DNA of 64,000 nt, taken from a virus (taxonomy: Duplodnaviria > Heunggongvirae > Uroviricota > Caudoviricetes). The DNA lies in the IMG/VR virus record IMGVR_UViG_3300048591_000212. One strand, given 5' to 3'. Position numbers and translations under genes: made by a program. Positions 37,781-53,468 of the stretch are shown here, piece after piece (position 1 is the stretch's first letter; each line of letters begins with the position of its first letter). The notes under the pieces are model-generated. The model did no database searches and was not told the DNA's origin. It saw only the letters and a program-made list of their open reading frames with translations.

Positions 37781-37786
37781 ACTTAT

Positions 37787-38070: not shown

Positions 38071-38076
38071 ACTTAT

Positions 38077-38709: not shown

Positions 38710-38720
38710 ATCGAGAACTC

Positions 38721-39182: not shown

Positions 39183-39363
39183 TATCTCCTCTATAGACTT
39201 TCAATACTATACCTGACGTGGGAATTACATACTTGGCGGATAATTCTCGAATATAGCCTTCAGAAACTTTTCGCCCATCGGCCCTTTTATGGACGTTCCG
39301 AATACATTGCTCTGGATCGTTTTCGAAAAAGAACCAAATTGGATTAATGTTTTCTTTTTTCAT
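39169..39363 (-). CDS. hypothetical protein (~64 aa; start trimmed to MKKENIN)
   Basis: Track N-terminus overlaps tRNA gene. Confidence 0.35.
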   Translation of the reverse strand: MKKENINPIWFFFENDPEQCIRNVHKRADGRKVSEGYIRELSAKYVIPTSGIVLKVYRGDNDES

Positions 39364-39394
39364 CCTCTTATCTGGAGGCACTGCCGAGGCATAA

Positions 39395-39484
39395 TGGTCC
39401 TGCGGTGCGGAATCGAACCGCATCCTGGGTCTTATCTGGACTAAGGGCTTATAAGGCCCCCTGCTCTCCATGAGCTACCGCAGG
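39395..39484 (-). tRNA. tRNA with anticodon UAU (Ile-like) and ~21-nt extra arm (90 nt incl. CCA)
   Basis: Acceptor CCTGCGG/CCGCAGG, anticodon stem GGGGC/GCCCU loop CUUAUAA, T-arm TGCGGTTCGATTCCGCA, ACCA end; long variable region is unusual for an Ile tRNA. Confidence 0.6.
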
Positions 39485-39647
39485 CAATCTTTTATATATT
39501 CTTCAGTGATCTGAGAAAGGGAGCAGACTTATTTATTCCCACCCGAAGAAGAGATTATGAAACTTGAACGGCGAATAAAGGAGGCAATTCAGCAAATTGT
39601 TCAAGAAAATCAAAACCTCTTCTTCAGGAATTTCCGCCCTCTTGATA

Positions 39648-39878
39648 TTAGTCAGCAACCCAGATAGCAGACATTCGCCCATTCCCCAGAACCGACTTTT
39701 CGGCATCATTCCAACCGCGCCTCCATGCGTTAAACGCATCCTTATCAACAAACAGCAGGGTGCCATCAACAGAATAAGGATTGTCAACATCGGGGTCATG
39801 TCCGAGAGTGTGAGCCTTCCGCCCAAGCAGGTATGCAACCCGCATATCGTATTTATGTGCGTTGTCGTTTTTCATCAT
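39648..39878 (-). CDS. hypothetical protein (76 aa)
   Basis: ORF track; downstream of promoter 39907..39935 with ~25-nt leader. Confidence 0.4.
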   Translation of the reverse strand: MMKNDNAHKYDMRVAYLLGRKAHTLGHDPDVDNPYSVDGTLLFVDKDAFNAWRRGWNDAEKSVLGNGRMSAIWVAD

Positions 39879-39906
39879 CGTCTCAGTCCCTTTCTTCTAC
39901 TCTTTC

Positions 39907-39935
39907 AGTATAGCAGTTCCGCTAACGCTTGTCAA
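39907..39935 (-). promoter_or_regulatory. early promoter TTGACA-N17-TATACT
   Basis: Minus strand: TTGACAagcgttagcggaactgcTATACT. Confidence 0.5.
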
Positions 39936-39938
39936 GAC

Positions 39939-40184
39939 TTACCAAGAAGAATTCCACGAATCCAGAACAAAATTGTTGCTGTCAACAGTCCACTCAAAGG
40001 TGGCATGAGCATCAGGGTCGATCTTTCCTGCATCATTCATCGCATCAAGCCAAGACTTCACTTCATCAATCACGGCACCAATGAGCAGGTTGGACACATT
40101 CTTATGAGTGTAAGACAGATGGTTGATCCGGTTTCCTTCGGAGTCGGATACTACCACAATCAGATTGGCAGTTTTCGTTTCCAT
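39939..40184 (-). CDS. hypothetical protein (82 aa from METKTANL), predicted leaderless
   Basis: Track ORF 39939..40232 trimmed; ATG 6 nt after -10 of promoter 40191..40219. Confidence 0.45.
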   Translation of the reverse strand: METKTANLIVVVSDSEGNRINHLSYTHKNVSNLLIGAVIDEVKSWLDAMNDAGKIDPDAHATFEWTVDSNNFVLDSWNSSW

Positions 40185-40190
40185 GATTAT

Positions 40191-40219
40191 AGTATAGCAG
40201 GACCAAACCCACTTGTCAA
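40191..40219 (-). promoter_or_regulatory. early promoter TTGACA-N17-TATACT, ATG at +7 (leaderless)
   Basis: Minus strand: TTGACAagtgggtttggtcctgcTATACTataatcATGGAA. Confidence 0.55.
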
Positions 40220-40548
40220 GTGATAGGACCAAGATATTTCAGACCGAAGGCCGAAGACCGCTTCACATGGGTCCAGCGCCCCGACACGACACCATGAAAA
40301 AGCGTGGTGGTTTGAATCATCTCAAGAAGCTCGGTCGGAAACATTTCAAACGGAACTCCGGTGGAGGACCGGAGCACGAAAAGTTTTCCACAACGCCCCT
40401 CCAGCTTCATCGTTTCCTCAAATACACGAGGCTCAGAATGTTCCCACAAATCGGGATAGCCGATGGAGTCCCACACGTCATAGTGGGTTCGCGGAACATA
40501 GCCGTCGGACTTTCTGTATGGAACAGTAAATTTTGGTTTCTTTGGCAT
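40216..40548 (-). CDS. hypothetical protein (~110 aa; ATG start after GAGGA)
   Basis: Track ORF 40216..40563 begins at TTG; GAGGA SD precedes the second ATG. Confidence 0.45.
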   Translation of the reverse strand: MPKKPKFTVPYRKSDGYVPRTHYDVWDSIGYPDLWEHSEPRVFEETMKLEGRCGKLFVLRSSTGVPFEMFPTELLEMIQTTTLFHGVVSGRWTHVKRSSAFGLKYLGPIT

Positions 40549-40737
40549 AATCATTATCCTCAATTAAAAATCCGATCCACCAAGCCTATCCTCCAGACGA
40601 GAGATTCGACGTTCCAGTTCCTCCCGCCTTCGCCTCTCTTTCAGAAGCAACTCAACGACCATTTCAAATCGCTCATCGACACTCAAGGCTCCACCTTCGT
40701 CATTGATTTCCATTTGGAACTTCCTTTCATAAAACGC

Positions 40738-40827
40738 AGCGGGGGGCGAAGGAATCGAACCCTACTGGCTCGTCACCAGTCCCCGGATTTCAAGTCCGGT
40801 TGCCGACCATTCAGCGGCACCCCCCAA
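40738..40827 (-). tRNA. tRNA-Ser (anticodon UGA), type II
   Basis: G-rich acceptor GGGGGGU/GCCCCCC, D-stem GCCG/CGGC, anticodon stem CCGGA/UCCGG loop CUUGAAA, long variable arm ACUGG-UGACGAG-CCAGU, T-loop TTCGATT; 5' end coincides with predicted TSS of promoter 40835..40863. Confidence 0.7.
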
Positions 40828-40834
40828 CATCTAC

Positions 40835-40863
40835 AGTATAGCACACGATCTTTGTGCCGTCAA
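40835..40863 (-). promoter_or_regulatory. early promoter TTGACG-N17-TATACT directly upstream of tRNA-Ser
   Basis: Minus strand: TTGACGgcacaaagatcgtgtgcTATACTgtagatGTTGGGGGG. Confidence 0.5.
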
Positions 40864-41141
40864 CTATCGAGATCAGCTTTCTTCAGAAGACTCGCGAGTT
40901 TCGCATAATCTTTCGGTTGCAGAATAAACGATTCAAAGTCTCCGTACTTTGACTTGTAACCAAAAATATATTTGATTCCGGCAACCAATCTTCGAAAGAA
41001 ACTTCGATACTGACACAGATAAATCGAAAAATAAAAATCCGACAGACCGTTTTCTGGATCAGTATAGACGGTTACCTTAAGTGTATGCTCGTCCGAGGAG
41101 CAGACACACTCAAAAAACTCCATATCTCGTTCTGTTGTCAT
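40860..41141 (-). CDS. hypothetical protein (93 aa)
   Basis: ORF track. Confidence 0.4.
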   Translation of the reverse strand: MTTERDMEFFECVCSSDEHTLKVTVYTDPENGLSDFYFSIYLCQYRSFFRRLVAGIKYIFGYKSKYGDFESFILQPKDYAKLASLLKKADLDS

Positions 41142-41941
41142 AGAATCTCCGAATAGTATTGTTTCAGCTTCGAATGACCACTATGAGAATGAACAATATC
41201 AGAATAATCATGAATAGTAAAAATTCCCGCATCAACAATCTGCTTGGACGGCTGATGACCCAAGGCGGCGGATGACCAATGTTCTTTAGGAAATAGCCGG
41301 AAGAAATACTTCAAAACCGGATCATTTTTAGAGAACACCACATGAATATCTTCTTTGAAATAATCCTTAATGAATCCGGCTGACACATCAGAGATCGTTT
41401 TCTCATAAAAAGAATTGGTAATTGCTGGTGCCGCAAACACCACTTTACCGACAAATTCGGCTACTTCTCTTCGAATAAAATGTTCGATTACTTCACATCC
41501 CAGAGAATGCCCCTGAATGATAATATTTTCTTCTAGGTATCCAATATTCTTTAGTGCCTGAACTGCCCGCATCAGCCACTTAGCCGCTTCCTGAGTTCTC
41601 TTCTTTGCGAAGTAGAAACCGAGAGTTCTGGACCAAGAGGAAGGCCAGAAGAAATTCAACACGTCCACTTTCTCATAACGAGAGTGATTATCAATGTTCT
41701 CGGCCATTCTATCATAAACAGTCACAATCTTATCATAGACGCCGCGATATCCATGAACCAGAATGATGACCTTTCTATTTTTGTCCGCCAAGAATGAACT
41801 TGAACTGCCTACCATATAATTACCAATACCAACAATTCTTTTTTCGAGATAATTCTTTCCATACTCAAACTTAACGAATTCCGTATCGGAACGTCCATTC
41901 TTTCTGCAATTAAACTCGTAGATATGATTAATTCTCGTCAT
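41138..41941 (-). CDS. alpha/beta-hydrolase (lipase or esterase-like, GHSLG nucleophile elbow)
   Basis: VIILVHGYRG ... IIQGHSLGCEV pattern. Confidence 0.6.
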   Translation of the reverse strand: MTRINHIYEFNCRKNGRSDTEFVKFEYGKNYLEKRIVGIGNYMVGSSSSFLADKNRKVIILVHGYRGVYDKIVTVYDRMAENIDNHSRYEKVDVLNFFWPSSWSRTLGFYFAKKRTQEAAKWLMRAVQALKNIGYLEENIIIQGHSLGCEVIEHFIRREVAEFVGKVVFAAPAITNSFYEKTISDVSAGFIKDYFKEDIHVVFSKNDPVLKYFFRLFPKEHWSSAALGHQPSKQIVDAGIFTIHDYSDIVHSHSGHSKLKQYYSEIL

Positions 41942-42510
41942 TTATTTCGAAACTCCTCTATGGCATCATAGACCAGCATACAGGTCTTGGCGTCCGACAA
42001 GGCATCATGAATATCACATTCGATGCCCATCAATTTTGCAATATTCTCCAAAGTAAAGTTTTCGAATTTATGACGATTTTCCATTACCACTTCTTGAAGC
42101 AAAACAGCAACATCAACCGGAGGCCACCAGAAGTAGGAGGAGTAATACATCTCATTATTATTTTCGAAAAACTTCCTCACAAACATATTATCGAAGAAAG
42201 CATTGTATCCGACCAGAAAGAGTTTGTCGGTCTTGTCGTACCGATTCACATAGGCATCCAAGAAGGACACAAACTCTCGATAGGTGTCCACCGGATCTGG
42301 ATATTCCATAATCTCTTCGACAGTCTTCTTATTTATTTCAAGGGCTTCCTTAGAGATTTTCTGATACGGAAATGGTCTACAACGAAGATTGATCTCATTA
42401 ATGACTTCATCGCCAATTCGAATGACGGCACCAATCTGAATAATGCCGTGACGATTATAGTCCAGCCCGGTTGTCTCAGTATCCAAAAAGAGTCTTTTTA
42501 TCTTCTTCAT
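41938..42510 (-). CDS. DEDDh 3'-5' exonuclease (DnaQ or RNase T-like)
   Basis: Exo I FLDTETTGL, Exo II LVGYNAFFD, Exo III HDALSDAKTC. Confidence 0.75.
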   Translation of the reverse strand: MKKIKRLFLDTETTGLDYNRHGIIQIGAVIRIGDEVINEINLRCRPFPYQKISKEALEINKKTVEEIMEYPDPVDTYREFVSFLDAYVNRYDKTDKLFLVGYNAFFDNMFVRKFFENNNEMYYSSYFWWPPVDVAVLLQEVVMENRHKFENFTLENIAKLMGIECDIHDALSDAKTCMLVYDAIEEFRNK

Positions 42511-43039
42511 TAATTACAAACTTTCCTGATTTATTTGTGGTCAATTGAAATACCACCGATGACCGTGGGCGAAAGAGAGCCATGTATCGATATTCATCAT
42601 TTTCTGAATTTGGTACGCCATCAACAGTTGTCCGATTTTTTGAATTCTTCAGATTTAGACCGTCGTATGTATTTTCCGCAATCATGATGTGCTTTTCATC
42701 GCCACCCAAAAATCCAGAGAAGCGAATGATATCTACTGGTTTCCACACATCATCTTCAATATTAACTACAACATGATATCCCTTTGACTTAGACCGCCAC
42801 AGACGAACGCTCATAATCGGCGCAATGATCTTGTTGAACATATTCAAAAGAGACAGTAGTCTCTCGATATCTCTTGAATCATAGTCAACCAAAATAGTGT
42901 CATTATTCTTCGAGTTTGTAACTATCTCGAATTGAGATTCGTCCACTTCTGCCAATTTTTCGTGAAAGTTAGAATTGTAATAATCGTCTGATGCTTTTTC
43001 TAATTTCATATCATCAATGAATTCATTCATACAATTCAT
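42476..43039 (-). CDS. hypothetical protein (187 aa)
   Basis: ORF track. Confidence 0.45.
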   Translation of the reverse strand: MNCMNEFIDDMKLEKASDDYYNSNFHEKLAEVDESQFEIVTNSKNNDTILVDYDSRDIERLLSLLNMFNKIIAPIMSVRLWRSKSKGYHVVVNIEDDVWKPVDIIRFSGFLGGDEKHIMIAENTYDGLNLKNSKNRTTVDGVPNSENDEYRYMALFRPRSSVVFQLTTNKSGKFVINEEDKKTLFGY

Positions 43040-43044
43040 ACAAT

Positions 43045-43689
43045 TTACTCCACGATGGCCTTGTATTCTTCAAAGTCTTCGGGAGTCATTCTCATTTCGG
43101 CCCCACATGGACACTTAGGAAATCCGGCAGTCAGACTCTTGACCGTCGCCTTGACTTCATAATCGCCTTCGAATGTTCCAGAAAGAACACAATTCGGAGA
43201 CTCGACTCGCTTTTCTGGGCAGTGAAGTTTGAAGGTATTCTTCTTATTCTTACGCTCCTTTTCCTTCAGAATGATACGAGAATTAGGAAACTCCCCAAGC
43301 TCCCCAACCACTTTTTCAATAAATCGATTGAGTTCATCACCGGGCGCAGCATGAATCGCCTTACCTTCGAGACCAATTTTCTTCATGCCGTCCTTAAACA
43401 GCTTACCATGTTTCGCTCCATCCGGCAACACAGCATGAAGAAGCTCATGAGCAAGAGTTCCAAGAACCTCAACCGCATTTGAATGATGTGCAGGAGAGAT
43501 GAAGATCTGTTTCACTCCATTTTCGGTTGCGGTGGAGTGCCAACACTCCCCCATCGTCCGCTTCGGATTTTTGGCTCCGAATCCACAGGCAACTTGAATT
43601 GCCGGAATAGTAAACTGTTTACTCTCAAAAACCGGACGCAGCTTATCGACCGCCGCATACAAATACTCTTCTCGCGTTTCGAATGGCAT
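43045..43689 (-). CDS. SprT-like HExxH zinc metallopeptidase with C-terminal zinc ribbon
   Basis: LAHELLHAV plus CPEKR...CPCGAEM. Confidence 0.5.
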   Translation of the reverse strand: MPFETREEYLYAAVDKLRPVFESKQFTIPAIQVACGFGAKNPKRTMGECWHSTATENGVKQIFISPAHHSNAVEVLGTLAHELLHAVLPDGAKHGKLFKDGMKKIGLEGKAIHAAPGDELNRFIEKVVGELGEFPNSRIILKEKERKNKKNTFKLHCPEKRVESPNCVLSGTFEGDYEVKATVKSLTAGFPKCPCGAEMRMTPEDFEEYKAIVE

Positions 43690-43692
43690 ACA

Positions 43693-43896
43693 TTATTTCC
43701 TTTCCATAACCAATTCTATCGGCTTTCCATCTTCATTACTAGTTGGCACAAAAATGTTTCCGCATTCATCAGTCAGATACTTCGTTCCGTTTCGATCCAT
43801 CTTCTCCTCGGCGGCGACAATTCTCCACCGTCCAGAAAGAGTAGTGGACAACTCAATCTTCCTTTTCATCATAGCACATCTCCAGATGTTTGTCAA
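43693..43896 (-). CDS. hypothetical protein (67 aa)
   Basis: ORF track; TTGACA-N17-TATGAT promoter at ~43868..43896 overlaps its 5' end. Confidence 0.35.
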   Translation of the reverse strand: MTNIWRCAMMKRKIELSTTLSGRWRIVAAEEKMDRNGTKYLTDECGNIFVPTSNEDGKPIELVMERK

Positions 43897-44916
43897 CTAG
43901 TAAACGATATTGAAGACGCGAAAGAAATCGCGATCCATTTCACAATAATCTTCCTCATTGTGGTGCATATAAACAATGGAATCAGTTGTGTAGATTCTAA
44001 GAAATTTTTCTTCCAATTCTCCAAGGCCCTTGGAAAAGATTCCGTGAGTTACGAACAGGGAGGCCCTCAAAGTTCGGGCGAAAGCTCCCGGCATTACAAT
44101 ATTCGCCTCCTCCAATTTTTCATTAATTCCGATAAACGTCCCACCACCGTCACAGATGTCATCCACAATTAAAATTGAGCCGTTTTCATCGAATTCGGTT
44201 TTATCGGGAATCTCAAACCCAAGAAATTTCCCGGTTGCCGCGTCCCGATTCTTCTTAGCAAATAGCTTGCTGATCTTAATTGTTCCAGTATTTCCAAAAA
44301 TCTCATTTGGAATCGAATATCGTCTTGATGCTCCCTCATCGGGAAACAGGATATTAATAGATCTGGTTCCGGCAGAACTTTTGGCTTTATAGTACTCATG
44401 AATTTTAACCTCTTCAAGAATCGCCGCCATGATGTACGGTTCGGCGGAAAGCTCCTGAACCTCGATCAATCCAGCGCCAGAACGATTCGCCTCTTCCGCG
44501 ATCCAATTCCTTGTCTTGGGGTTATGATTATCCAAAGTGATAATCTTGCTCACACCAAAGGTCTTACAAATTCCAACCAACTGATAAATGAAAACATGAA
44601 GACCATGGCAATCTCCCTCAACGAACACTCGGTCGGCCCGACTAAACGGAAGATAAGGAATAAACAGTTCAATCTGCCTTTTTCCATTAAATGCCCTATT
44701 ATAATTGATAATATTCAAAACCTGACCCAAAATGATCAGATCATCACCGGAAGTATATTCCATACGAATAACGACTCGTTCGGCGGCTTTCAGGCTAGGA
44801 AGATACTTTACATCAGAAATACGGGTCTGAATTTCTCCAGCCGGATACCGAAAGCTCTTAAAATACCCCGGCTTCTCGGAACCAACCTTGGGAAGATTAA
44901 TAGTCATTGTATTCAT
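43897..44916 (-). CDS. ribose-phosphate pyrophosphokinase (PRPP synthetase)-like protein; candidate Prs or ADP-ribose pyrophosphokinase (Adps)
   Basis: PRPP-binding loop ILIVDDICDGGGT and N-terminal Pribosyltran_N-like region; track start 44991 overlaps the NAMPT gene, so trimmed to MNTMTINL directly after its stop. Confidence 0.7.
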   Translation of the reverse strand: MNTMTINLPKVGSEKPGYFKSFRYPAGEIQTRISDVKYLPSLKAAERVVIRMEYTSGDDLIILGQVLNIINYNRAFNGKRQIELFIPYLPFSRADRVFVEGDCHGLHVFIYQLVGICKTFGVSKIITLDNHNPKTRNWIAEEANRSGAGLIEVQELSAEPYIMAAILEEVKIHEYYKAKSSAGTRSINILFPDEGASRRYSIPNEIFGNTGTIKISKLFAKKNRDAATGKFLGFEIPDKTEFDENGSILIVDDICDGGGTFIGINEKLEEANIVMPGAFARTLRASLFVTHGIFSKGLGELEEKFLRIYTTDSIVYMHHNEEDYCEMDRDFFRVFNIVY

Positions 44917-44917
44917 T

Positions 44918-47900
44918 TTAACGATTCTCCAGATTCTCTTTGATTTGATCAAAAGTAATATAGTTTGTCTCAGAACCAATAAGCTCATCAAAAACTAGAT
45001 CATAAGCACAGTTTTCCAACTCAGAAACAGTAGCATTCTGCTTCACAAAAAGTTCACCATTTTCGTTCCGATATACTGCCGGAATTCCTCGAATCGACTT
45101 TTTGGAATTTTTCTTATCATCAGTAATCGGATCTTTGAAGATTGGCTGAATGGTGTCACCGTTCACTTCGATTGCGGTCGCCTTCATTGCGAAACCAAAG
45201 GTGTCCCGCGTCACATATTCATAAGTAAAGGAACCAATTCCGAAGACCATATTATAGGGACTCAACTTCAATTCATTTACCATTCGATCCAGAATGGCAT
45301 CCGCCCGCTCATAAGTGATGGCATCACCATAAATGACTCCAGCATTATTGATCATCGGAAGCCCGCCATCGACGCCCGGAGTAGTACCAAGAGCCTCAGC
45401 CAGAAGCCGAAGAACTCCCTTACGTTCATTCTCATTGGATGAATTCGGATCACCACAGACAATATTAACTGGATCGCCAGAATTACCAGAAACAACAACA
45501 CAGCCGTTTCGTCTGACCACGATCATGCCAGTATTAACCTGAACGCAATACACCTTTCCGGTATACGAAACAGCGGCTTTCTTAATACTTTGCCCACCAG
45601 AAGTAGACGTTTTGTTTATGTGAATCGTGTATACCTTAGAGAAGTAGGATTTTCTCGTATCGTCATATTCAGAAGAACACGTCCTATAGCCAGCCAAGGT
45701 AGCCAATAATTGAACGGCCTCGGCATTAATCTTAACGGTTGTATCGTATTTTATTCTATTTTCGCTCCTGATACAACTATCCCAATTGGACAATTCATCA
45801 ATAAATTCTTTGGCCCAGACGCCTGAAATGTCATTCAGCATATCAAAAACCCAAGCAAAAGTTTTTTGTGCATCATTTGGAAGAGTAACATAGAATTGGG
45901 TGTTTCTTGGACGAGCGGGTTCAACAGTTTCCTTATACTCGAAACCAGATTCAATCAATAATTTTCTCATGCGATCCACTTTTCGCTGTTTAGTGAAATT
46001 AAATCTCACCTTATTTTTCGGACCAGTCGTGTTGAACGAACCATCCGCCTGAAAAGCAATCAACAATCTTTCTTCCGAAGTAAGAGATTTCGGCTTGCCA
46101 ACCAAAACGCCAGAATGGATCATATCCTTCTCATAGAAGTATTTTATATTTTCTGCCTCTTTTACTTCTACTCCTCCGCGCCCATTTGTTCTGACCATAC
46201 GATGATTTGAAGTAACCAACAAATCGACGTGACTGTCGTTTCTGAAATGAATCATATCTTGTTCGGATTCCAGCTCCGATTCATAATAACGGATAGGCTT
46301 GGTGAAATTGATGGTCCCGTCTTGGTTATACTCTGCTACCAGATCCTCTTCATTTAAGTCCTTAAATAAAACAAAACCGCGATTAGTAAGGATTTCTGTT
46401 TTGTCATCATAACAATCCGGCCTGATCACGATCTTACCATTTCGATTCAAAATTGAATCCTTCAGTCGTGGAATATAATTTGTCAAAACTTTCCACAAAT
46501 CAAACGAATCAGAAACAATTGACACGATGCCTTCGGGGTAAACCTTATTGATCAGTCGGTCAAACATCTCAAATTCATCAACTTCTCCATTCGGAAGATA
46601 CTTGGCAGAACTTGTCATCACGCTATGTTCCGTGTTTCCTGAAATAGCAATGATGCCATTTCTCCGAACAACAATCATCTTCGAAGGAACAGAAACACAA
46701 TATACATAATCGTCATAATCAAACACTTCATTTATTATTCCATGACAGGTAACAACACTTTTATTCAAAGTAATTGTGATGCGGTGCATTGGATTTCTTT
46801 TATAATCTTCCCTCTTGTCAATGTACATGCTGACCTTAGTTTTACAATTACATAAAGTAGCCAAGCATTCAACAACTTCAACATTTAGTTGATTTGTTGA
46901 GGAGTAGATAATATGATTTTTTCTTCTGCTGCCGTCCCAATATTGCAACTCTTCAATAAAAGCTCGGCACCAAGATGACGACACTTCAACGATGTTAACC
47001 CAAGAGAAATCCTTCAGCAATTTTTCGGGTAAATTGATCCAAAAAGAATAATAACCATCTTTATATTTTGTCCAAGTGAAAACACAATCATCAATTTCCG
47101 ATAAAATCGACAACAATCTTTTGAACTTTCTTTCTTTCTTGAAAGAAAAACGAATCGGAAATTTTCCGCTCCTCTCCCCGGTATAATCTTCCGCATGTGA
47201 AGGATATGACCCATCTGCTTGAAAAGCAATCTTCAGCTTCTCCAATGGAGATAATGTTTCTTTCCCACCAATTTTATTTCCAGAAACAACAACTTTATTT
47301 TTTGTGTTATACACAGATTGAGAAGATGCTTCTTTCAGTTCAATTTTCCGGTCTTTATTTAAGAACACCAACTTATGATTTGGAGTAACACAAATATCTA
47401 TATAACGATGACCCTCTTTATAAAACCGATACATTTTTCCTTTATATCGATCCTTATAATATTTCGTCGGAGAAACAAACTCTATATTACCATCGATAGT
47501 ATATTGTGCAACCAGATCAGTTTCCAGTAAATCATCAAATTTCTTAAATCCTGAATTTGTCAACAATTCCGTTTCTTTATCAAAGCAAGCCGGAACCGAC
47601 CCACCACAAGAATATTCCGCACCATAGTATTCAACGGCACCCAAAATCGCCGGAATGGTGTCGGTTCCATTAAAAGAAAGAAGATGACCCATTCCAGACA
47701 TTACGGCATCTTCCAGACCCGACATGCCACGATACGAAAAATCATGTCCCTGCCATTTCGTGAAAGTTAGATCCTTTTCGCCAGAGAGAATCGCCCACTT
47801 CTCAAACAGTCTCTTGTACCGATCTGCGATGGTGGCAGAAGTCATTCCCTTCCAGAGCATATTAGAAATCATCGTTTCCAGATAGTTTGGAAGCCAGAAA

Positions 47901-48301
47901 GCCCACGGCTCAGTGTTATGAATCACAATCGACGGAATTCCGAGAGGTACCAGAGTACCTTCTGGAAGAGAATAAATCCGAATTGGCAATGCGCCATGAT
48001 GCCACAACTGTTCAATATGATCCGTCTTCGGATTAGCCACACCCAGAGTCGCGGAGATGATCTCACGATACTGCCGAAGAATATTTCTCAAGTCTTCAGT
48101 GAAAAATAATTCATCGAACATTTCCTCAATTCGACGAAGCACACACTGAACCCCAAAATGGACAATCTTATTCACGCCATCAATTCGGCTGGAACGGGGC
48201 GTCCAATTCGAGAAAACCGTGGTTACGTTTTCTGGATACTGCTGGACGTGTCCGACCTTATAAAAGTCGATCATGAAAATAGGATTAATTTCTTTCATCA
48301 T
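44918..48301 (-). CDS. nicotinamide phosphoribosyltransferase-like (NAMPT/NadV or Namat) precursor interrupted by two inteins; extein 498 aa
   Basis: N-terminal signature IDFYKVGHVQQYP (NAPRTase family); 1127 aa vs ~490 expected; two insertions beginning with Cys after ...GGSVPA and ...KIVIRPD and ending ...VVRRNG(I/C)xxxSGN followed by Thr or Ser. Confidence 0.8.
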   Translation of the reverse strand: MMKEINPIFMIDFYKVGHVQQYPENVTTVFSNWTPRSSRIDGVNKIVHFGVQCVLRRIEEMFDELFFTEDLRNILRQYREIISATLGVANPKTDHIEQLWHHGALPIRIYSLPEGTLVPLGIPSIVIHNTEPWAFWLPNYLETMISNMLWKGMTSATIADRYKRLFEKWAILSGEKDLTFTKWQGHDFSYRGMSGLEDAVMSGMGHLLSFNGTDTIPAILGAVEYYGAEYSCGGSVPACFDKETELLTNSGFKKFDDLLETDLVAQYTIDGNIEFVSPTKYYKDRYKGKMYRFYKEGHRYIDICVTPNHKLVFLNKDRKIELKEASSQSVYNTKNKVVVSGNKIGGKETLSPLEKLKIAFQADGSYPSHAEDYTGERSGKFPIRFSFKKERKFKRLLSILSEIDDCVFTWTKYKDGYYSFWINLPEKLLKDFSWVNIVEVSSSWCRAFIEELQYWDGSRRKNHIIYSSTNQLNVEVVECLATLCNCKTKVSMYIDKREDYKRNPMHRITITLNKSVVTCHGIINEVFDYDDYVYCVSVPSKMIVVRRNGIIAISGNTEHSVMTSSAKYLPNGEVDEFEMFDRLINKVYPEGIVSIVSDSFDLWKVLTNYIPRLKDSILNRNGKIVIRPDCYDDKTEILTNRGFVLFKDLNEEDLVAEYNQDGTINFTKPIRYYESELESEQDMIHFRNDSHVDLLVTSNHRMVRTNGRGGVEVKEAENIKYFYEKDMIHSGVLVGKPKSLTSEERLLIAFQADGSFNTTGPKNKVRFNFTKQRKVDRMRKLLIESGFEYKETVEPARPRNTQFYVTLPNDAQKTFAWVFDMLNDISGVWAKEFIDELSNWDSCIRSENRIKYDTTVKINAEAVQLLATLAGYRTCSSEYDDTRKSYFSKVYTIHINKTSTSGGQSIKKAAVSYTGKVYCVQVNTGMIVVRRNGCVVVSGNSGDPVNIVCGDPNSSNENERKGVLRLLAEALGTTPGVDGGLPMINNAGVIYGDAITYERADAILDRMVNELKLSPYNMVFGIGSFTYEYVTRDTFGFAMKATAIEVNGDTIQPIFKDPITDDKKNSKKSIRGIPAVYRNENGELFVKQNATVSELENCAYDLVFDELIGSETNYITFDQIKENLENR
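45482..46414 (-). mobile_element. intein 2 (311 aa) with LAGLIDADG-type homing endonuclease domain, paralogous to intein 1
   Basis: Starts CYDDKTEILTNRG, contains LLIAFQADGSF, ends MIVVRRNGCVVVSGN | S. Confidence 0.7.
46634..47587 (-). mobile_element. intein 1 (318 aa) with LAGLIDADG-type homing endonuclease domain
   Basis: Starts CFDKETELLTNSG (Hint block A), contains LKIAFQADGSY (LAGLIDADG-like), ends MIVVRRNGIIAISGN | T. Confidence 0.7.
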
Positions 48302-48657
48302 TACTCCAAAATAATATTCATTCCATTAACTTCTCTATAGTCAATACAGATGAATTTCTCTTTTCCATTTACAATATAAGTGGGTCCAGCTTTCATATTC
48401 AGTGGAACCAAAACACTAAGAGGACGAGAAGAGGAGGGCGTGGTATATTCATCAACCAGAACAATCTTAAATAAGTTTAATATTCCGGAAATATTTGCGT
48501 AGGCTCGAACCTCTGCGTCTTCACGGACCTCATAAATCGTTCCCGTAAAGATTTGTCCAACGGAAACCTTAGACAAATCCATTCGGCGCTGGTCCACAAC
48601 TCTGATTTCATTACTCATCTTCGTCCTCTTCCTCTTCCTCATACCAGTCATCATCAT
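48301..48657 (-). CDS. hypothetical protein (118 aa)
   Basis: ORF track. Confidence 0.4.
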   Translation of the reverse strand: MMMTGMRKRKRTKMSNEIRVVDQRRMDLSKVSVGQIFTGTIYEVREDAEVRAYANISGILNLFKIVLVDEYTTPSSSRPLSVLVPLNMKAGPTYIVNGKEKFICIDYREVNGMNIILE

Positions 48658-48874
48658 CGTCTTCTTCGTCGTCGGGACCGAAGCCGCCGTTTACGCAATA
48701 AGAAGAAATCGTCGCCAGAAGATTATCATAGTCTCCACTCATGGCTTCGATTTTGACTTCATCAATTTCATCCGGTGTCCAACCAGCACGCTTTGCTTCT
48801 CGTTGAAATGCTCCCAGAATAGCAAAAGCATTTCCATCCATGCCGACAAGTTCAAGATTCACTTCGTTTTTCAT
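48611..48874 (-). CDS. small acidic protein (87 aa)
   Basis: ORF track; SD AAAGGTAATT before ATG; poly-acidic C-terminus. Confidence 0.4.
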   Translation of the reverse strand: MKNEVNLELVGMDGNAFAILGAFQREAKRAGWTPDEIDEVKIEAMSGDYDNLLATISSYCVNGGFGPDDEEDDDDDWYEEEEEDEDE

Positions 48875-48928
48875 AATTACCTTTCTTCTTTAATTGAAAT
48901 CGGGTACTTTAATAGATACTGGAGATTT

Positions 48929-49234
48929 TCATCGCATACTACCTAAGATACTTTCCAACATCTCTTTCTGACCGCCAAGGTGAGCCATTTTCAGCATTGT
49001 AATTAGTTCTTCTTCAGAGATATCGGGAGAAAAACTGCCACCATCAAGATATTTCTTCATCGTCGAAGAGAGTTCCTTAAAATCTTCTTGGATACTCCGC
49101 TCAAGAATCTTTATGGCACCCTCAATTCTACTTTTATATAAGAGAACCTGATCGGCCATTAGAATAACTCCCCAACGTCCTGAAGATATTGTTTCATTTT
49201 GGTTAATTCCTGAATTTTGGCATCCGTCGTACAA
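48929..49234 (-). CDS. hypothetical protein (101 aa)
   Basis: ORF track. Confidence 0.4.
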   Translation of the reverse strand: MYDGCQNSGINQNETISSGRWGVILMADQVLLYKSRIEGAIKILERSIQEDFKELSSTMKKYLDGGSFSPDISEEELITMLKMAHLGGQKEMLESILGSMR

Positions 49235-49386
49235 ATCATACCGAACATGACAGTTTCATCTCCACTAAAGAGATCTTTACGACCATCAAATGAATTGGAA
49301 TACTCCTCAATCAACTTGTTGAGGGCAGCAATCTCTTCATCAATCCACTCAATCTTCTTCTGATACGGATTACTCTTCATTACCAA
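49159..49386 (-). CDS. hypothetical protein (75 aa)
   Basis: ORF track. Confidence 0.4.
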   Translation of the reverse strand: MVMKSNPYQKKIEWIDEEIAALNKLIEEYSNSFDGRKDLFSGDETVMFGMICTTDAKIQELTKMKQYLQDVGELF

Positions 49387-49712
49387 TTCCTAAAGTCCTT
49401 TCTGGAATAAACCACGCTCAAATCCTCGCTCTTCGGTGTACGACCAACATGGTAGCCATCACACCATCGGCACTTGTACGGAACATAAGAACCACGAGGC
49501 CGAATCACTTCTTGACGATAGGCTCCGATAGTAGCCAAAGCCTTCGTCGGGTACTTATGCTTTTTCGAACAAGAATAGTAGGCATCAAAGACACCATCCT
49601 TCTGTAGTCGGTCAAATAGATCGAGAGCGTCCCGGTCAGAGAGACAATCGATATGAATACCTAGAACAGAGAGATGACGCTTGGCCCGCTGTCCAGCAGT
49701 TTCTTTCTCCAT
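49380..49712 (-). CDS. hypothetical Cys/His-containing protein (110 aa), predicted leaderless
   Basis: ORF track; ATG 6 nt after -10 (TACCAT) of promoter with perfect TTGACA. Confidence 0.45.
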   Translation of the reverse strand: MEKETAGQRAKRHLSVLGIHIDCLSDRDALDLFDRLQKDGVFDAYYSCSKKHKYPTKALATIGAYRQEVIRPRGSYVPYKCRWCDGYHVGRTPKSEDLSVVYSRKDFRNW

Positions 49713-49719
49713 ACTTCTA

Positions 49720-49748
49720 TGGTATCAGATTCATGAGTGAATGTCAAG
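49720..49748 (-). promoter_or_regulatory. early promoter TTGACA-N17-TACCAT, ATG at +7
   Basis: Minus strand: TTGACAttcactcatgaatctgaTACCATagaagtATGGAG. Confidence 0.45.
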
Positions 49749-50049
49749 CCCCGCCAAGAAGTTTTTCTGCGGCCTCTACAATCTGACAAACATCATCAAG
49801 ATCCAGATCCTTTCGAAGCGCATCACTGGCACCAGCAGCATAGGCCATCAGAAGCTCGGCCTGAATGTCGGGGACAGCATCAGGAACGTCCCTAGCGATC
49901 TCTTCATAGCGATTGATAATATTTTGAATATCAACAGATTCGGTCTTCAGACTTGGCCTTGGCGCAGGAGGAGGACACACCGGACGAACCAAAGGGGGAT
50001 AGCCACCGTCAGCATCAATCGGAAGAACCTTTTTGACAGTAAAATCCAT
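49744..50049 (-). CDS. hypothetical protein (101 aa)
   Basis: ORF track. Confidence 0.45.
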   Translation of the reverse strand: MDFTVKKVLPIDADGGYPPLVRPVCPPPAPRPSLKTESVDIQNIINRYEEIARDVPDAVPDIQAELLMAYAAGASDALRKDLDLDDVCQIVEAAEKLLGGA

Positions 50050-50085
50050 TGTAATACTCCTCCATTCAAAAATATAGTGTCATAG

Positions 50086-50161
50086 TAGTCCGCCTCGGAC
50101 TCGAACCGAGAATGCCTCCTGAATGTAAATCAGGCGCTCTAACCAATTGAGCTAACGGACT
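50086..50161 (-). tRNA. tRNA-Val (anticodon UAC)
   Basis: Acceptor AGTCCGT/GCGGACT, D-arm GCTC AATTGGTTA GAGC, anticodon stem CCTGA/TCAGG loop UUUACAU, T-arm CTCGGTTCGAGTCCGAG; TATAAT -10 4-5 nt upstream of 5' end. Confidence 0.75.
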
Positions 50162-50166
50162 ATAAA

Positions 50167-50397
50167 TTATAACTGAAACGGAAAATTGAGACAGGAGGGA
50201 AAATTTTCCTCAACGACTCTGACATCCAGTTGTTTAGTATTTCTGATAGCTTCTACTCGAATTATTTCCACCTGTTCATCAGAAAGTTCCATATTGGATT
50301 CAATAACACTGATTTGATCTTTGAATATGCGGCGGCACTTCAGACATATTCCGACCGCATTTACTGTCCCCGAATATTTGTACATATTAATCTCCAT
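50167..50397 (-). CDS. hypothetical protein (76 aa)
   Basis: ORF track. Confidence 0.35.
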   Translation of the reverse strand: MEINMYKYSGTVNAVGICLKCRRIFKDQISVIESNMELSDEQVEIIRVEAIRNTKQLDVRVVEENFPSCLNFPFQL

Positions 50398-50599
50398 CCA
50401 ATAAAACTAAATTTGATTCCGGTTCCCAGAAATAATCAGGCCAAGGATTAACTTGCGAACGCACAAACCAAGTCTTCTCTGTACGAAGACCGACGTGGAC
50501 AAGCGGGCCTTCACAAATGACGTAACCAGTCCGACCCCGATTTTTCGAATCTGTGGACTCTCTGACCATAACATCGTCATGAATTTTGATATTTTTCAT
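50387..50599 (-). CDS. hypothetical protein (70 aa)
   Basis: ORF track. Confidence 0.35.
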   Translation of the reverse strand: MKNIKIHDDVMVRESTDSKNRGRTGYVICEGPLVHVGLRTEKTWFVRSQVNPWPDYFWEPESNLVLLDGD

Positions 50600-50608
50600 T
50601 TATTTCTC

Positions 50609-51064
50609 CTATGCTAGCGGAAAAGACTTCAACCAAGCAATAAATTCGAGAATACACATCGCATCATGAGTACCACGCTTAGACACTCGCATAATTTTCA
50701 TAGCCTTCTCTTCATCATAGAGCCAATTGGGAAGAATGATACCAACTGCCGTCAATGCCCCATTCAGGGATTGCTCGTCCTCATAAAAAGATGCCATTGG
50801 AATACATGACTCAGAAAAACGAAAACACTTCGACAGATATCCATTGCTAAAAAATTCAGTGATATGATCACGAATCCCCTTCAGGCTGGCACAGTTGCCT
50901 CCATTCAGGACTATAATGGTCTTATGATCAGCGGCCCACTCAGTAAACACGGTAACATCAATTTCGTTTCGTTCTTGAAACGCCATCTCAGAAACAACAT
51001 GAGCGGTCTGAATTCCGCGCTGAATGTCCGACAGGTACATATTCGTAAAGCTATACAATCTCAT
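50609..51064 (-). CDS. hypothetical protein (151 aa)
   Basis: ORF track; weak resemblance to small hydrolase folds, not assignable. Confidence 0.45.
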   Translation of the reverse strand: MRLYSFTNMYLSDIQRGIQTAHVVSEMAFQERNEIDVTVFTEWAADHKTIIVLNGGNCASLKGIRDHITEFFSNGYLSKCFRFSESCIPMASFYEDEQSLNGALTAVGIILPNWLYDEEKAMKIMRVSKRGTHDAMCILEFIAWLKSFPLA

Positions 51065-51073
51065 TATTTGCCT

Positions 51074-51331
51074 CTATTCTTCCCACAATTCATATTCACG
51101 CAAGTCACTCTCAAAAACCCACACCACAGGAAATATCGAAACGTCCTTGCCGCCAGAATACAACTCAACGAGCCACGTCATCTTGTTTTCTTCGTGTGGA
51201 CCATAATATGACCGGGGGCCGAGACCCACAACTTCACCAACTTCACCATTCAGCGGACCAGCAGCAACCCCCTCAATAATCACTCGATCACCGTACTTGA
51301 ATTTCAATTTCATAAATTCCTCCCTCACCAT
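51074..51331 (-). CDS. hypothetical protein (85 aa)
   Basis: ORF track. Confidence 0.4.
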   Translation of the reverse strand: MVREEFMKLKFKYGDRVIIEGVAAGPLNGEVGEVVGLGPRSYYGPHEENKMTWLVELYSGGKDVSIFPVVWVFESDLREYELWEE

Positions 51332-51341
51332 TATTTAGATG

Positions 51342-51418
51342 TGGAGTCCCCTGTAGGAGTCGAACCTACTAAGAGCGACTTTGCAGGTCGCCGCCTCCAC
51401 CACTTCGGCATAGAGGAC
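51342..51418 (-). tRNA. tRNA-Cys (anticodon GCA)
   Basis: Acceptor GTCCTCT/AGGGGAC, anticodon stem GCGAC/GTCGC loop CUGCAAA, T-arm GTAGGTTCGACTCCTAC, discriminator U + CCA; 3-bp D-stem. Confidence 0.75.
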
Positions 51419-51427
51419 AATTAAAAA

Positions 51428-51985
51428 CTAAACAGCAGCCATAGTCTTACTGTTCATTCTCGACCAAAAAACCTTTCCGAAAACTGGACCGCCGTCAACA
51501 ATTCCTTTCGGAATATTCGCGAGATATTTACCGTACCTCACTCCATAGTGAGTGTCTTCCTTGCCGGGGGCGGGTGACAGAAAAGGAACATACTTTTTCA
51601 TTCCATCGGACCAACGAACAAACTTTTTGGCAAAGGCAATCGCATAAGATGCCAAACACTGCTCCATTTTCTCCTGACAGCGATCATTCCAGACCAGAGC
51701 ATTATCCATCGCCCACTCCCAAGCAAAGATTTCCCGATCCTGTTTGCTGGTGTTTTCGGTATCCATAATATGACCGATCTCATGAAGGGCCACCACATAG
51801 GAGATAACCGAAGAAATCTTTCCGACCTGAATCTTTCTCGTCCTCATCCATGCCCGACCCCTACCCGAAACACCGGACTCGAAGATTTCAATGTCATGTT
51901 CCTTACATAGTTCAAGAATGTGCCAGCGCATAAAACTCTTGGAAACTTCAGTTGTCTTCGTCTTCGTCTTCGTCTTCGTCATCAT
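51428..51985 (-). CDS. HExxH metallopeptidase-like protein (185 aa) with N-terminal (TK)n repeat
   Basis: VALHEIGHIMD zinc-binding motif; N-terminal MMTKTKTKTKTT encoded by (cgtctt)n microsatellite. Confidence 0.5.
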   Translation of the reverse strand: MMTKTKTKTKTTEVSKSFMRWHILELCKEHDIEIFESGVSGRGRAWMRTRKIQVGKISSVISYVVALHEIGHIMDTENTSKQDREIFAWEWAMDNALVWNDRCQEKMEQCLASYAIAFAKKFVRWSDGMKKYVPFLSPAPGKEDTHYGVRYGKYLANIPKGIVDGGPVFGKVFWSRMNSKTMAAV

Positions 51986-51994
51986 TACTCTTTC

Positions 51995-52023
51995 AGTATA
52001 ACAGGTAGAGAGGAGCTTGTCAA
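51995..52023 (-). promoter_or_regulatory. early promoter TTGACA-N17-TATACT, ATG ~9 nt downstream
   Basis: Minus strand: TTGACAagctcctctctacctgtTATACTgaaagagtaATGATG. Confidence 0.5.
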
Positions 52024-52042
52024 GAGTCTCCCAAAAAATTTC

Positions 52043-52240
52043 TTAGAAGGTTGCCCGCATCACATCAACAGCAGCCAGAGTCAAAGTCGGATGATTCCGC
52101 CCAACACATTCCTCTTTATACCAAGCAGAGTAGGTCTTGGTGTCCTTGTTATAGATGACATATCCTTGAGCAATCGAACGATACAGAACGCCGAACACGA
52201 TAGTATCTTCCGTTTCGTACACAACAACATTCTTCGTCAT
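52043..52240 (-). CDS. hypothetical protein (65 aa), predicted leaderless
   Basis: ORF track; ATG 6 nt after -10. Confidence 0.45.
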   Translation of the reverse strand: MTKNVVVYETEDTIVFGVLYRSIAQGYVIYNKDTKTYSAWYKEECVGRNHPTLTLAAVDVMRATF

Positions 52241-52246
52241 GTCTAC

Positions 52247-52275
52247 ATGATAGCAGACGAGGAAGAACTTGTCAA
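52247..52275 (-). promoter_or_regulatory. early promoter TTGACA-N17-TATCAT, ATG at +7
   Basis: Minus strand: TTGACAagttcttcctcgtctgcTATCATgtagacATGACG. Confidence 0.5.
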
Positions 52276-52850
52276 GTCATAAACGAAAAAAATTCTTTAG
52301 TGAAGGCTTGCTTATACTTATCCAAGTTCCCACGAACATAAACTTTTCTTATATCCGATCCCTTGTAATGTGTATAAGAAAATTTTATACTTCGGTGGTA
52401 CTTGTTCACCACGTCACCGGACGGCAGCACCACATTCAGATTCTTCTCAATATGTTCTGCCAGTTTTCCGACATAATCAAATTCGAGAATGTATAGAAGA
52501 TCGGCCCGAAAGAAACAGGACACTAAGATTTTGTAGTTGTTGTCGATTAGATTCTGGTGTCTCTTGTGAGTGAAATCTGAAAAACTTCCATAGCCATTGA
52601 TCTTCTTTGTGGATCTTTCATCATAATAGGAAGTCTTTATCTCAACAAATCTGCCTTTCTTATCCTTAGCATCAAAGGATAATTTAGTATCATTATGAAT
52701 TATACCACACACCGAACAAGTAACTCTCTCCCGAATCTCATGTGATAAAAAAGAAAGCTGAATTAATTTATCTAGATTCTCTGGCTGTGTTACAAATTCT
52801 TGTGTCTGACCTTTTGAATAATTGGAAAGCTGTTTGAATAGTCTAGTCAT
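52272..52850 (-). CDS. hypothetical protein (192 aa), possible PD-(D/E)XK-like nuclease
   Basis: FDAKDKKGRFVEIKTS resembles a D...ExK catalytic core; weak. Confidence 0.4.
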   Translation of the reverse strand: MTRLFKQLSNYSKGQTQEFVTQPENLDKLIQLSFLSHEIRERVTCSVCGIIHNDTKLSFDAKDKKGRFVEIKTSYYDERSTKKINGYGSFSDFTHKRHQNLIDNNYKILVSCFFRADLLYILEFDYVGKLAEHIEKNLNVVLPSGDVVNKYHRSIKFSYTHYKGSDIRKVYVRGNLDKYKQAFTKEFFSFMT

Positions 52851-53113
52851 AGTTGGCGAATCTTTACTCTTGGAGTCTTCGGCTCAATTCTATAATCCAC
52901 AGAAAAAAACAAATCTCTGAGAGAAATAAGTTCGGCCCGCTGCAATCTATAACTTATATCAGAATTATCGGAATCAGAATAATGTTTTCGAATTATGTTT
53001 TCTAAGCAAAGTGCATTATAGAAACAATCGTCACCACGCACAAAGACCCCCGGCCAGTCTTCTTCACCATTTTCATGAACGCAAACAACTGAACCAGTCT
53101 CAAGTCTTTTCAT
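52847..53113 (-). CDS. hypothetical protein (88 aa)
   Basis: ORF track. Confidence 0.4.
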   Translation of the reverse strand: MKRLETGSVVCVHENGEEDWPGVFVRGDDCFYNALCLENIIRKHYSDSDNSDISYRLQRAELISLRDLFFSVDYRIEPKTPRVKIRQL

Positions 53114-53468
53114 TCAATTTTCTCTCCACTTCTTCATCAATCGCTCTATACTCTAATCTTTCTCGAAAGATTCTGTTGCTCCACTTGTCTTCCGAATATT
53201 TGGAATCATATTCGATAGGAAATTCTGGGTTATCTATTAAAGCATCCTCGAAAGAAAAACTTTCCAATACAATCTTTTTTCCTTCTGATAATACAGTAAA
53301 AGATTCTGGATATGAATCATACTTTGGATTCATCTTGAATGCACACCCATCCCAATACATCTCGGTTGTATATGGCTTGAAAAAATCCACGGCCCCTTCT
53401 ATGAAAACTTCTGTCTCTCCTGTTGGATCTACTTCTTGTAAATATGCAATAAGTTCTTTTGATTTCAT
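53100..53468 (-). CDS. hypothetical protein (122 aa)
   Basis: ORF track. Confidence 0.4.
   Translation of the reverse strand: MKSKELIAYLQEVDPTGETEVFIEGAVDFFKPYTTEMYWDGCAFKMNPKYDSYPESFTVLSEGKKIVLESFSFEDALIDNPEFPIEYDSKYSEDKWSNRIFRERLEYRAIDEEVERKLNEKT

Follow-up and report, generated by a model that had tools for sequence, protein, structure and literature searches.

A 64,000-nucleotide stretch of DNA from a tailed phage (Caudoviricetes; IMG/VR record IMGVR_UViG_3300048591_000212), hereafter the window, carries two adjacent minus-strand genes that resemble enzymes of nicotinamide adenine dinucleotide (NAD+) metabolism: one of the nicotinamide phosphoribosyltransferase (NAMPT) family, and one related to phosphoribosyl pyrophosphate (PRPP) synthetase (Prs). 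We analyzed this pair as a probable NARP1 module, the NAD+ reconstitution system formed by the enzymes Namat and Adps (ADP-ribose pyrophosphokinase), in which the namat gene is interrupted by two inteins. The NAMPT-family open reading frame (ORF; 48301..44918) is a single uninterrupted frame of 1127 codons plus a stop, and the Prs-like gene (44916..43897), which encodes a divergent Prs-fold diphosphokinase of 339 amino acids, lies 3′ of it, giving the minus-strand order namat, then adps. The single nucleotide between them (44917) separates the namat stop codon TAA (44920..44918) from the adps ATG (44916..44914) in the junction CGT TAA A ATG, with GGAG located upstream; we set the adps start at this ATG and regard the longer mechanical ORF from TTG 44991 as an upstream extension. 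The namat start codon in turn shares nucleotides, in the sequence TAATG, with the stop codon of the small ORF before it; given this overlap and the 1-nt spacer the genes are tightly packed, and the spacing of namat and adps is compatible with co-transcription and coupled translation. A promoter and terminator scan of positions 43000-50500 returned counts not above those of shuffled controls, and we therefore make no claim regarding operon boundaries. The adjacency of the two genes, the 1-nt gap, and the loop VDDICDGGGT (Adps residues 251-260, nt 44166..44137) had been pointed out in an initial annotation made from the sequence alone, and all are present on the minus strand at these positions. 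Pfam matches on the long ORF comprise NAMPT_N, NAPRTase, Intein_splicing, Hint, and LAGLIDADG_3, and the only match on the Prs-like gene is a sub-threshold Pribosyltran hit of 16 bits.

Nampt proteins are ~490 amino acids in length, and the NAMPT-like ORF reaches 1127 amino acids because two inteins, which the initial annotation had not noted, interrupt it. The intact precursor gene consists of three extein segments and the two inteins, all on the minus strand. The N-extein (47588..48301; amino acids 1-238) ends in GGSVPA and holds the clamp loop TPRSSRID (nt 48202..48179) considered below. Intein 1 (46634..47587; 318 amino acids, precursor residues 239-556) runs from CFDKETELL to AISGN and is followed by Thr+1. 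The middle extein (46415..46633; residues 557-629, TEHSVM...KIVIRPD) contains the catalytic His as well as the Arg and Asp that match R306 and D308 of the Namat of Bacillus phage SPbetaL1; intein 2 (45482..46414; 311 amino acids, residues 630-940) runs from CYDDKTEIL to VVSGN and is followed by Ser+1; and the C-extein (44918..45481; residues 941-1127 plus the stop) carries the clamp-helix motif GSFTYEYVTRD (nt 45235..45203). This double-intein architecture splits two catalytic motifs: intein 1 lies at SVPA/TEHS, two residues ahead of the catalytic His, and intein 2 lies at IRPD/SGDP, within the motif whose Arg and Asp bind ribose. Excision of both inteins in silico yields a 498-amino-acid protein with a gapless alignment to SPbetaL1 Namat over both junctions.

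The blocks of intein 1 (VTPNH, IAFQADGS, and YWDG) and of intein 2 (VTSNH, IAFQADGS, and NWDS) correspond to each other, and the two inteins are 38.6% identical; intein 1 also scores 26.5 bits against TIGR01445 (intein_Nterm; cut-off 24.5). Both share with a wider family Cys1, a T-x-N-H block B, two LAGLIDADG-type motifs (IAFQADGS and xWD), a vyCV block, and a terminal GN. Cys1, TxNH, the terminal Asn, and Thr/Ser+1 are kept across 117 family members, and Q122-A123-D124-G125 and W211-D212 of intein 2 are invariant in the family, with both acidic LAGLIDADG motif residues present. Comparison of both inteins with solved structures by sequence gave chance-level matches only, and a structure prediction for intein 2 was therefore needed. 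The resulting AlphaFold model, based on 49 homologs, had a predicted local distance difference test (pLDDT) score of 96.2 and a predicted template modeling (pTM) score of 0.93, and in Foldseek it matched the TliVMA intein (7qsu; E = 4e-13), PI-PfuI, and PI-SceI, with entries 1dq3 and 1vde among the matches, as well as the free LAGLIDADG enzymes I-DmoI and I-SceI and Hedgehog/Hint domains. Intein 2 is accordingly modeled as a HINT fold with a LAGLIDADG endonuclease, and the fold of intein 1 was judged by homology to intein 2. Like PI-SceI, PI-PfuI, and TliVMA, the window inteins combine a HINT splicing domain with an inserted LAGLIDADG endonuclease, and they have Cys1, TxxH, a terminal Asn, and Ser/Thr+1; unlike these, they reside in Namat, have Gly at the penultimate position, and lack a sequence-level match to solved inteins. 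Their location at catalytic motifs of a conserved enzyme resembles that of phage inteins in RNR, PhoH, and ThyA (phrog_12229, phrog_32482, and phrog_85). The low GC content of intein 1 (33.6%, compared with 39.5% in intein 2, 45.5% in the N-extein, and 40.6% in the whole window) would fit a foreign origin, or an acquisition more recent or more foreign than that of intein 2.

Identification of the spliced protein as a Namat is well supported by sequence comparisons. Using phmmer, the spliced extein matched PDB entries 9w5x/9w5w (the Namat structures of PMC12774641, NAR 2026) with 431 bits (E = 5e-128), compared to 183 bits for Xanthomonas Nampt and ~170 bits for mammalian NAMPT; 9w5x can be equated with SPbetaL1 Namat because its tblastn match is 100%. 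Entry 9ke8, considered as a reference for the Nampt of Vibrio phage KVP40, was dropped, being absent from the phage collection (best match 58%, to SPbetaL1). Using blastp, the extein matched the Namat of SPbetaL1 with 406 bits (46% identity), that of Bacillus phage FADO with 399 bits, and that of ICP1 with 307 bits, whereas KVP40 NadV reached 166 bits (31% identity). The features that discriminate Namat from Nampt are a clamp-helix motif and a clamp loop that provides an Arg, Lys, or Tyr (PMC12774641), and the NAD+-contact residues listed for SPbetaL1 Namat in the same study are identical in the window extein at 20 of 20 positions. The identical core (SPbetaL1 numbering) includes D13, Y15, F189, R192, D215, R306, D308, G360, and D361 together with the catalytic His motif SVPATEHS, and the clamp residues R40, F392, and Y396 are also identical, whereas position 392 is Gly or Ala and position 396 is Gln or Lys in KVP40 NadV, human NAMPT, and Xanthomonas Nampt. 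The clamp motif itself reads GSFTYEYVTRD in the window (F at 3, Y at 7), in agreement with the published signature, and GSFTYQYNTRD in SPbetaL1, and the aligned positions are GSGGGLLQKLTRD in the human protein and GGGLLQQLDRD in KVP40; in the clamp loop, TPRSSRID of the window aligns to TPRTSRVE of SPbetaL1, such that Arg39 corresponds to SPbetaL1 Arg40. The initial annotation had proposed a phylogeny of both proteins as a check. In a small neighbor-joining tree of 14 sequences with 200 bootstraps, all Adps-linked proteins including the window extein formed one clade with 100% bootstrap support, and KVP40 NadV, Xanthomonas Nampt, and human NAMPT (the tree sequence being identical to PDB 2gvg) fell outside it. 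By homology, we infer that the window protein would use ADP-ribose pyrophosphate (ADPR-PP) in preference to PRPP and would make NAD+ directly.

The Prs-like protein is likewise well supported, from its sequence relationships, as an Adps rather than a housekeeping Prs. With 52 bits for TIGR01251 and 25 bits for the class I model NF002320, it falls short of the respective cut-offs of 113 and 297, which E. coli Prs exceeds at 423 and 533 bits. The Adps of SPbetaL1, FADO, Felixounavirus, and ICP1 score 96-134 and 64-96 bits against the two models, with three of the four below the cut-off of TIGR01251 and all four below that of the class I model; against phrog_619 the window protein scores 181 bits. 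A PDB search with the window protein found no class I Prs at E < 1 and no Adps structure, its only matches being two archaeal Prs with weak scores (E = 1e-5 and 0.04), and the same search with E. coli Prs for comparison retrieved bacterial and human Prs at 245-680 bits. Housekeeping Prs was rejected as an identity on the basis of these curated thresholds and the missing class I match. The AlphaFold model (pLDDT 89.6) has a Prs fold and matches PRPS1/Prs structures with a template modeling (TM) score of ~0.6 at 15-20% identity. Its motifs include PYLPFSRADR, LDNHN, the catalytic loop KKNRDAATGK, VDDICDGGGT, and THGIFSKG, and those held in common with known Adps are PYxPxxRxDR, K-x-R-[DN]-x-x-TG, DDICDGG, and THGIFSKG; the catalytic Lys, K222, aligns with K162 of SPbetaL1, and K222, R224, D252, and D253 are invariant in the window Adps subfamily. 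In a neighbor-joining tree, which was limited to 19 sequences, 100% of 300 bootstraps recovered all Namat-linked Prs-like proteins, that of the window among them, as monophyletic with respect to human PRPS1 and the Prs of E. coli and B. subtilis (two of the cellular sequences were checked against PDB 8dbc and 1dkr), so that on this check, too, the window protein groups apart from cellular Prs.

Synteny points in the same direction. A Namat homolog occurs within ten genes in 97% of the Adps clade (Osterman et al., bioRxiv 10.1101/2024.02.11.579819), and the four closest long-contig relatives of the window Adps (P0126, P0132, P0124, and P0140; 36-39% identity by BLASTP) all have a NAMPT-family gene directly upstream, as in the window order of namat, then adps. 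The Namat partners of these relatives have the clamp motif and cluster with the window extein with 100% bootstrap support. One relative is located on a 1.4 Mb bacterial contig beside aconitase genes (L016 2493-4885) and represents a chromosomal NARP1 homolog; in another close relative of the module, on Logan contig SRR29078116_15231, a small ORF with a RyR domain (L018 1917-2129) lies just upstream of namat-adps and recalls the RyDEP proteins, which are described as feeding ADP-ribose (ADPR) into NARP1 (10.64898/2026.05.28.727677).

The source of the window is an uncultured, distantly T4-like phage (a myovirus). Encoded homologs include gp5, gp6, gp8, gp25, gp53, gp19, gp32, gp59, gp33, UvsW, and UvsY together with PhoH and MazG; gp6 is only 34% identical to gp6 of Pelagibacter phage HTVC008M, cyanomyophages, and Caulobacter phage Cr30, and no near-identical DNA was found in cultured phages. 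Because these cultured T4-like relatives have genomes of 141-244 kb, the window represents well under half of the genome. Additional sequence was scarce: an exact 40-mer from the window start had an 8.4 kb IMG/VR contig as its sole match, a 40-mer across a variable codon had none in metagenome or viral collections, and exact-protein look-ups either had no match or led only to contigs of 21.6 and 27.7 kb in JGI sample 3300048837.

This bears on an argument of the initial annotation, which had observed that no nicotinamide mononucleotide (NMN) adenylyltransferase (Nmnat) or Nudix gene is visible in the window and had taken this to favor Adps and Namat. The observation is borne out within the window: Pfam scans of ORFs of at least 120 amino acids, run singly or in one batch with a full family list, were free of NMNAT (CTP_transf_like), Nudix, PnuC/NadR, Macro, and RyR domains; the same domains were not among the best 25 of 47 matched families when the smaller ORFs were scanned in one batch; and tblastn of the window with the NMNAT-domain protein of KVP40, annotated as nicotinamide-nucleotide adenylyltransferase, gave nothing better than E = 3. 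An Nmnat (NMNAT-Nudix) was also not found in the 5.9 kb extension L004, although the window and this extension together are a fragment of a T4-like genome. The argument built on this absence is weak, both because of this fragmentary coverage and because the annotated NMN adenylyltransferase gene of KVP40 is 24 kb away from nadV; the NARP1 conclusion therefore rests on sequence signatures and synteny rather than on a missing Nmnat. Two related systems were also considered and rejected given that the Pfam scans of the window gave no PnuC/NadR, Macro, or RyR domains, namely NARP3 (PnuC and NadR; PMC13464706) and extended NARP1 with the Adpp Macro phosphatase (bioRxiv 10.64898/2026.01.28.702374); Pfam searches of the window ORFs found no Adpp Macro phosphatase, RyDEP, or NARP3 genes beside the namat-adps pair. 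The KVP40 record itself (113614-116214; L011 13614-16214) annotates KVP40.0211 as a nadR-like NMN adenylyltransferase that has a P-loop and, four genes downstream, KVP40.0215 as pnuC, a pair that resembles NARP3 and lies 24 kb from nadV.

One may postulate an alternative scenario of ordinary NMN salvage, in which the Prs-like protein supplies PRPP and the NAMPT-like protein makes NMN, with an Nmnat encoded elsewhere in the phage (a NARP2-like arrangement) or the route continuing through host NadR, or PncC and NadD. The partial genome and the distance between nadV and the NMNAT gene in T4-like KVP40 leave room for such a scheme; in addition, Namat retains some PRPP-dependent NMN synthesis in vitro (PMC12774641), and NCBIfam names the extein a nicotinate phosphoribosyltransferase equivalog at 445 bits. 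The extein is nonetheless closer to SPbetaL1 Namat than to KVP40 NadV by both identity and bit score, it is placed outside the KVP40 and cellular Nampt group with 100% bootstrap support, and it has both adenine-clamp elements, which are absent from Nampt; the Prs-like protein is below all curated Prs cut-offs, the search of the 64 kb yielded neither an NMNAT nor a Nudix domain, and Osterman et al. encountered NARP1 and NARP2 together in no phage (bioRxiv 10.1101/2024.02.11.579819). We consider it very unlikely that NMN salvage accounts for this locus.

The NARP2 system of KVP40 (NadV Nampt and NatV Nmnat) is nevertheless an instructive comparison, as it likewise involves a T4-like phage with a Nampt-family enzyme for NAD+ supply in infection. 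KVP40 NadV lacks the clamp (G, G, and Q at SPbetaL1 positions 391, 392, and 396) and groups with cellular Nampt, whereas the window protein has the clamp; moreover, NARP2 requires an Nmnat, none of which was found in the window, and KVP40 has no Prs-like gene next to nadV. The reference NARP1 systems are the Adps and Namat of SPbetaL1, E. coli phage Bas63, and FADO (bioRxiv 10.1101/2024.02.11.579819), and the window locus shares with them adjacent genes for a Prs-fold diphosphokinase and a Nampt-fold transferase that belong to the same clades; the Bas63 system has been shown to function in a host that lacks pncC and nadR. With SPbetaL1 in particular it shares identical NAD+ contacts, the GS-F-T-Y-x-Y-x-TRD helix, the clamp-loop Arg, and the Adps catalytic Lys. 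Unlike these references, the window has the reversed order of namat then adps, as do its closest relatives; its Namat carries two inteins, its carrier is a distant T4-like myovirus, and its Adps, at 339 amino acids with insertions, exceeds the 272-293 amino acids of the SPbetaL1, FADO, Felixounavirus, and ICP1 proteins.

The inteins belong to a family that is present in other namat genes. A total of 2288 records in the phage collection matched the precursor, and the 11 that cover at least 80% of it are ten Staphylococcus Kayvirus records and Citrobacter phage Tr1, in which the gene is annotated as NAMPT only or is unannotated. Staphylococcus phage phiSNIID has an intein at site 1 (SIPA/C...GN/TEHS; L002 3998-6436), and Tr1 (L003 3980-6637), Stab20, and Clo6 (P0091 and P0093) have one at site 2 (RPD/C...GN/SGD); within Staphylococcus Kayvirus the occupied site varies between records, being site 1 in some and site 2 in others. 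These namat genes contain the same intein family at the same sites as the window, but with one intein each rather than two. In the two records inspected, those of phiSNIID and Tr1, a Prs-like gene is located one small ORF upstream of the intein-bearing namat.

A collection of 5.8 billion proteins extended this picture. The best 120 matches are all longer than an intein-less Namat (697-1124 amino acids, most of them ~800), and the Namat clamp motif is present in 113; 58 have an intein at site 1 only and 46 at site 2 only, most of the others have variant junctions, and both sites are occupied in three (P0003, P0005, and P0006). A gene with Prs Pfam domains lies directly upstream of P0006, and the 267-amino-acid gene upstream of P0003 scores 211 bits against a profile of other reference Adps. 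A neighbor-joining tree of 117 excised inteins split perfectly into a site-1 clade of 62 and a site-2 clade of 55, and the best same-site identities reach 56.5% for window intein 1 and 64% for intein 2. A recent intragenic duplication of the inteins was rejected given that each is closer to same-site inteins elsewhere than their mutual identity would place them to one another, and the window inteins represent two related, site-specialized lineages. A full-text search of the available literature found no paper describing inteins in Nampt, NadV, or Namat, nor this intein family.

In a near-identical sibling of the locus, the namat frame contains a stop codon. JGI contig Ga0498921_0008320 (sample 3300048837) shows 20 differences from window 54151..33897 over 20,255 nt (99.9% identity), one of which is a CAA to TAA change at window nt 47320 (minus-strand codon 47320..47318; L001 6832-6834) that affects Gln90 of intein 1. 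Because of this TAA the gene caller split the sibling namat into ORFs of 327 and 798 amino acids. The stop is positioned past block B and ahead of the endonuclease domain, with an in-frame GTG two codons on; the Adps protein is identical in the window and the sibling, and the sibling N-extein has the substitution Y128H. The simplest readings of the TAA are a defective variant or a sequencing error; more speculatively, the allele could be an accidental split intein that rebuilds Namat in trans.

The sibling also raises the scenario that the locus is decaying or non-functional, such that one or both inteins no longer splice or the gene is a pseudogene in the making, with no reconstitution of NAD+. 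Two large inteins are a burden on one non-essential accessory gene, and neither intein has the penultimate His, having Gly in its place (an SGN end). A penultimate His, which assists Asn cyclization, is common in inteins but not obligatory; the whole family ends in [SC]GN, with ...GN in 117 of 117 members examined, and the Gly before the terminal Asn is therefore better viewed as a family trait than as a lesion. Furthermore, the 1127-codon frame is fully open in the window, no change is present at any family-invariant intein position or at any of the 20 Namat ligand contacts, and Adps has kept all catalytic residues that are invariant in its subfamily. Decay of this locus thus seems improbable.

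Taken together, we consider it highly probable that the locus is a NARP1 module, composed of Namat and Adps, of an uncultured and distantly T4-like phage. The initial annotation had preferred Adps and Namat over Prs and NadV, and this preference is upheld by the clamp, the NAD+ contacts, the clades of both proteins, the sub-cut-off Prs scores, and synteny. Under this model, a host defense of the SIR2, TIR, or SEFIR type would cleave NAD+ into ADP-ribose and nicotinamide; Adps, by homology to the SPbetaL1 and Bas63 enzymes, would use ATP to convert ADP-ribose to ADPR-PP; and Namat would then join ADPR-PP and nicotinamide directly into NAD+, with no requirement for an NMN adenylyltransferase. 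Namat is made as a precursor of 1127 amino acids, and its conversion to the active 498-amino-acid enzyme would require removal of both inteins by splicing. The simplest view is that the inteins are selfish elements whose homing, during co-infection, targets conserved codons of the namat active site.

Several points weigh against the NARP1 interpretation, which must be made with some caution. We know of no published sequence determinant of specificity for ADPR versus ribose-5-phosphate, and the substrate of Adps was therefore inferred from clade and synteny; more generally, the function proposed here is deduced from sequence and predicted structure. The window Adps is a divergent branch, with insertions and only 25-31% identity to reference Adps in a trimmed alignment, and a profile of eight reference Adps gives it 140 bits against 116 for E. 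coli Prs, only 25 bits apart. Splicing is assumed from conservation across the family, given that Gly replaces the usual penultimate His, and the stop in the sibling intein 1 indicates that the gene can evidently be lost or broken in the population. SPbetaL1 Namat can also make NMN from PRPP in vitro (bioRxiv 10.1101/2024.02.11.579819).

There is also a slim chance that the biology departs from plain NARP1, either through a splicing gate, through a related role of the sibling allele as a split intein, or through use of another ADPR derivative by Adps. Since Namat cannot work before both inteins have been removed, their splicing might gate NAD+ reconstitution post-translationally, for instance in response to redox state or to metabolites of the depleted cell. 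The window Adps subfamily, which is divergent, carries insertions, and has a reversed gene order, might for its part accept an ADPR derivative other than plain ADP-ribose.

Other parts of the window provide additional context. Downstream of adps, beyond one small unassigned ORF, the minus-strand stretch 41138-43689 encodes an SprT-like protein (43689..43045), a 187-amino-acid ORF without a family match, an RNase T/DEDD exonuclease (42510..41938), and a DUF900 alpha/beta hydrolase (41941..41138), and we found no known link between these genes and NARP1. ADPR-cyclic-phosphate is a breakdown product of ADPR-PP. On the minus strand at 29605-30488 and 32540-34606 there is a cluster of nucleotide/RNA-repair-type genes, in which a cREC_REC 'cyclic-phosphate processing receiver' (29979..29605) adjoins an HD-domain protein (30488..29985) and which also includes MazG (32908..32540), a calcineurin-like phosphoesterase (33422..32892), and an RlaP nucleotidyltransferase (34606..33776). 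Between uvsY and uvsW, at 57776-58965 on the minus strand, a TnpB-like gene (IS605 OrfB / Cas12f-type) is present in two ORFs, the first (58965..58495) with HTH_OrfB_IS605 and the second (58471..57776) with OrfB_IS605 and a Cas12f1-like TNB domain.

According to Osterman et al. (bioRxiv 10.1101/2024.02.11.579819), 4.3% of phage genomes carry the NARP1 pathway, which was described in 2024. The gene pair analyzed here is a further instance of this known system, and the intein layer is the part that had not been reported. The locus would extend NARP1 to distant T4-like environmental phages and define a subfamily with reversed gene order that also occurs on a bacterial chromosome. In addition, a large intein family, represented by at least 117 public examples in two site-specific clades at two catalytic motifs, resides in namat genes, and its carriers are annotated in GenBank only as NAMPT. 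Gene callers and length filters can mishandle such genes, as in the sibling copy called as two genes, and the cloning of intein-bearing anti-defense genes must allow for splicing. Persistent inteins are usually read as a mark of strong selection and of frequent exchange between co-infecting phages, and their persistence in namat therefore lends weight to the idea that NAD+ reconstitution matters in nature.

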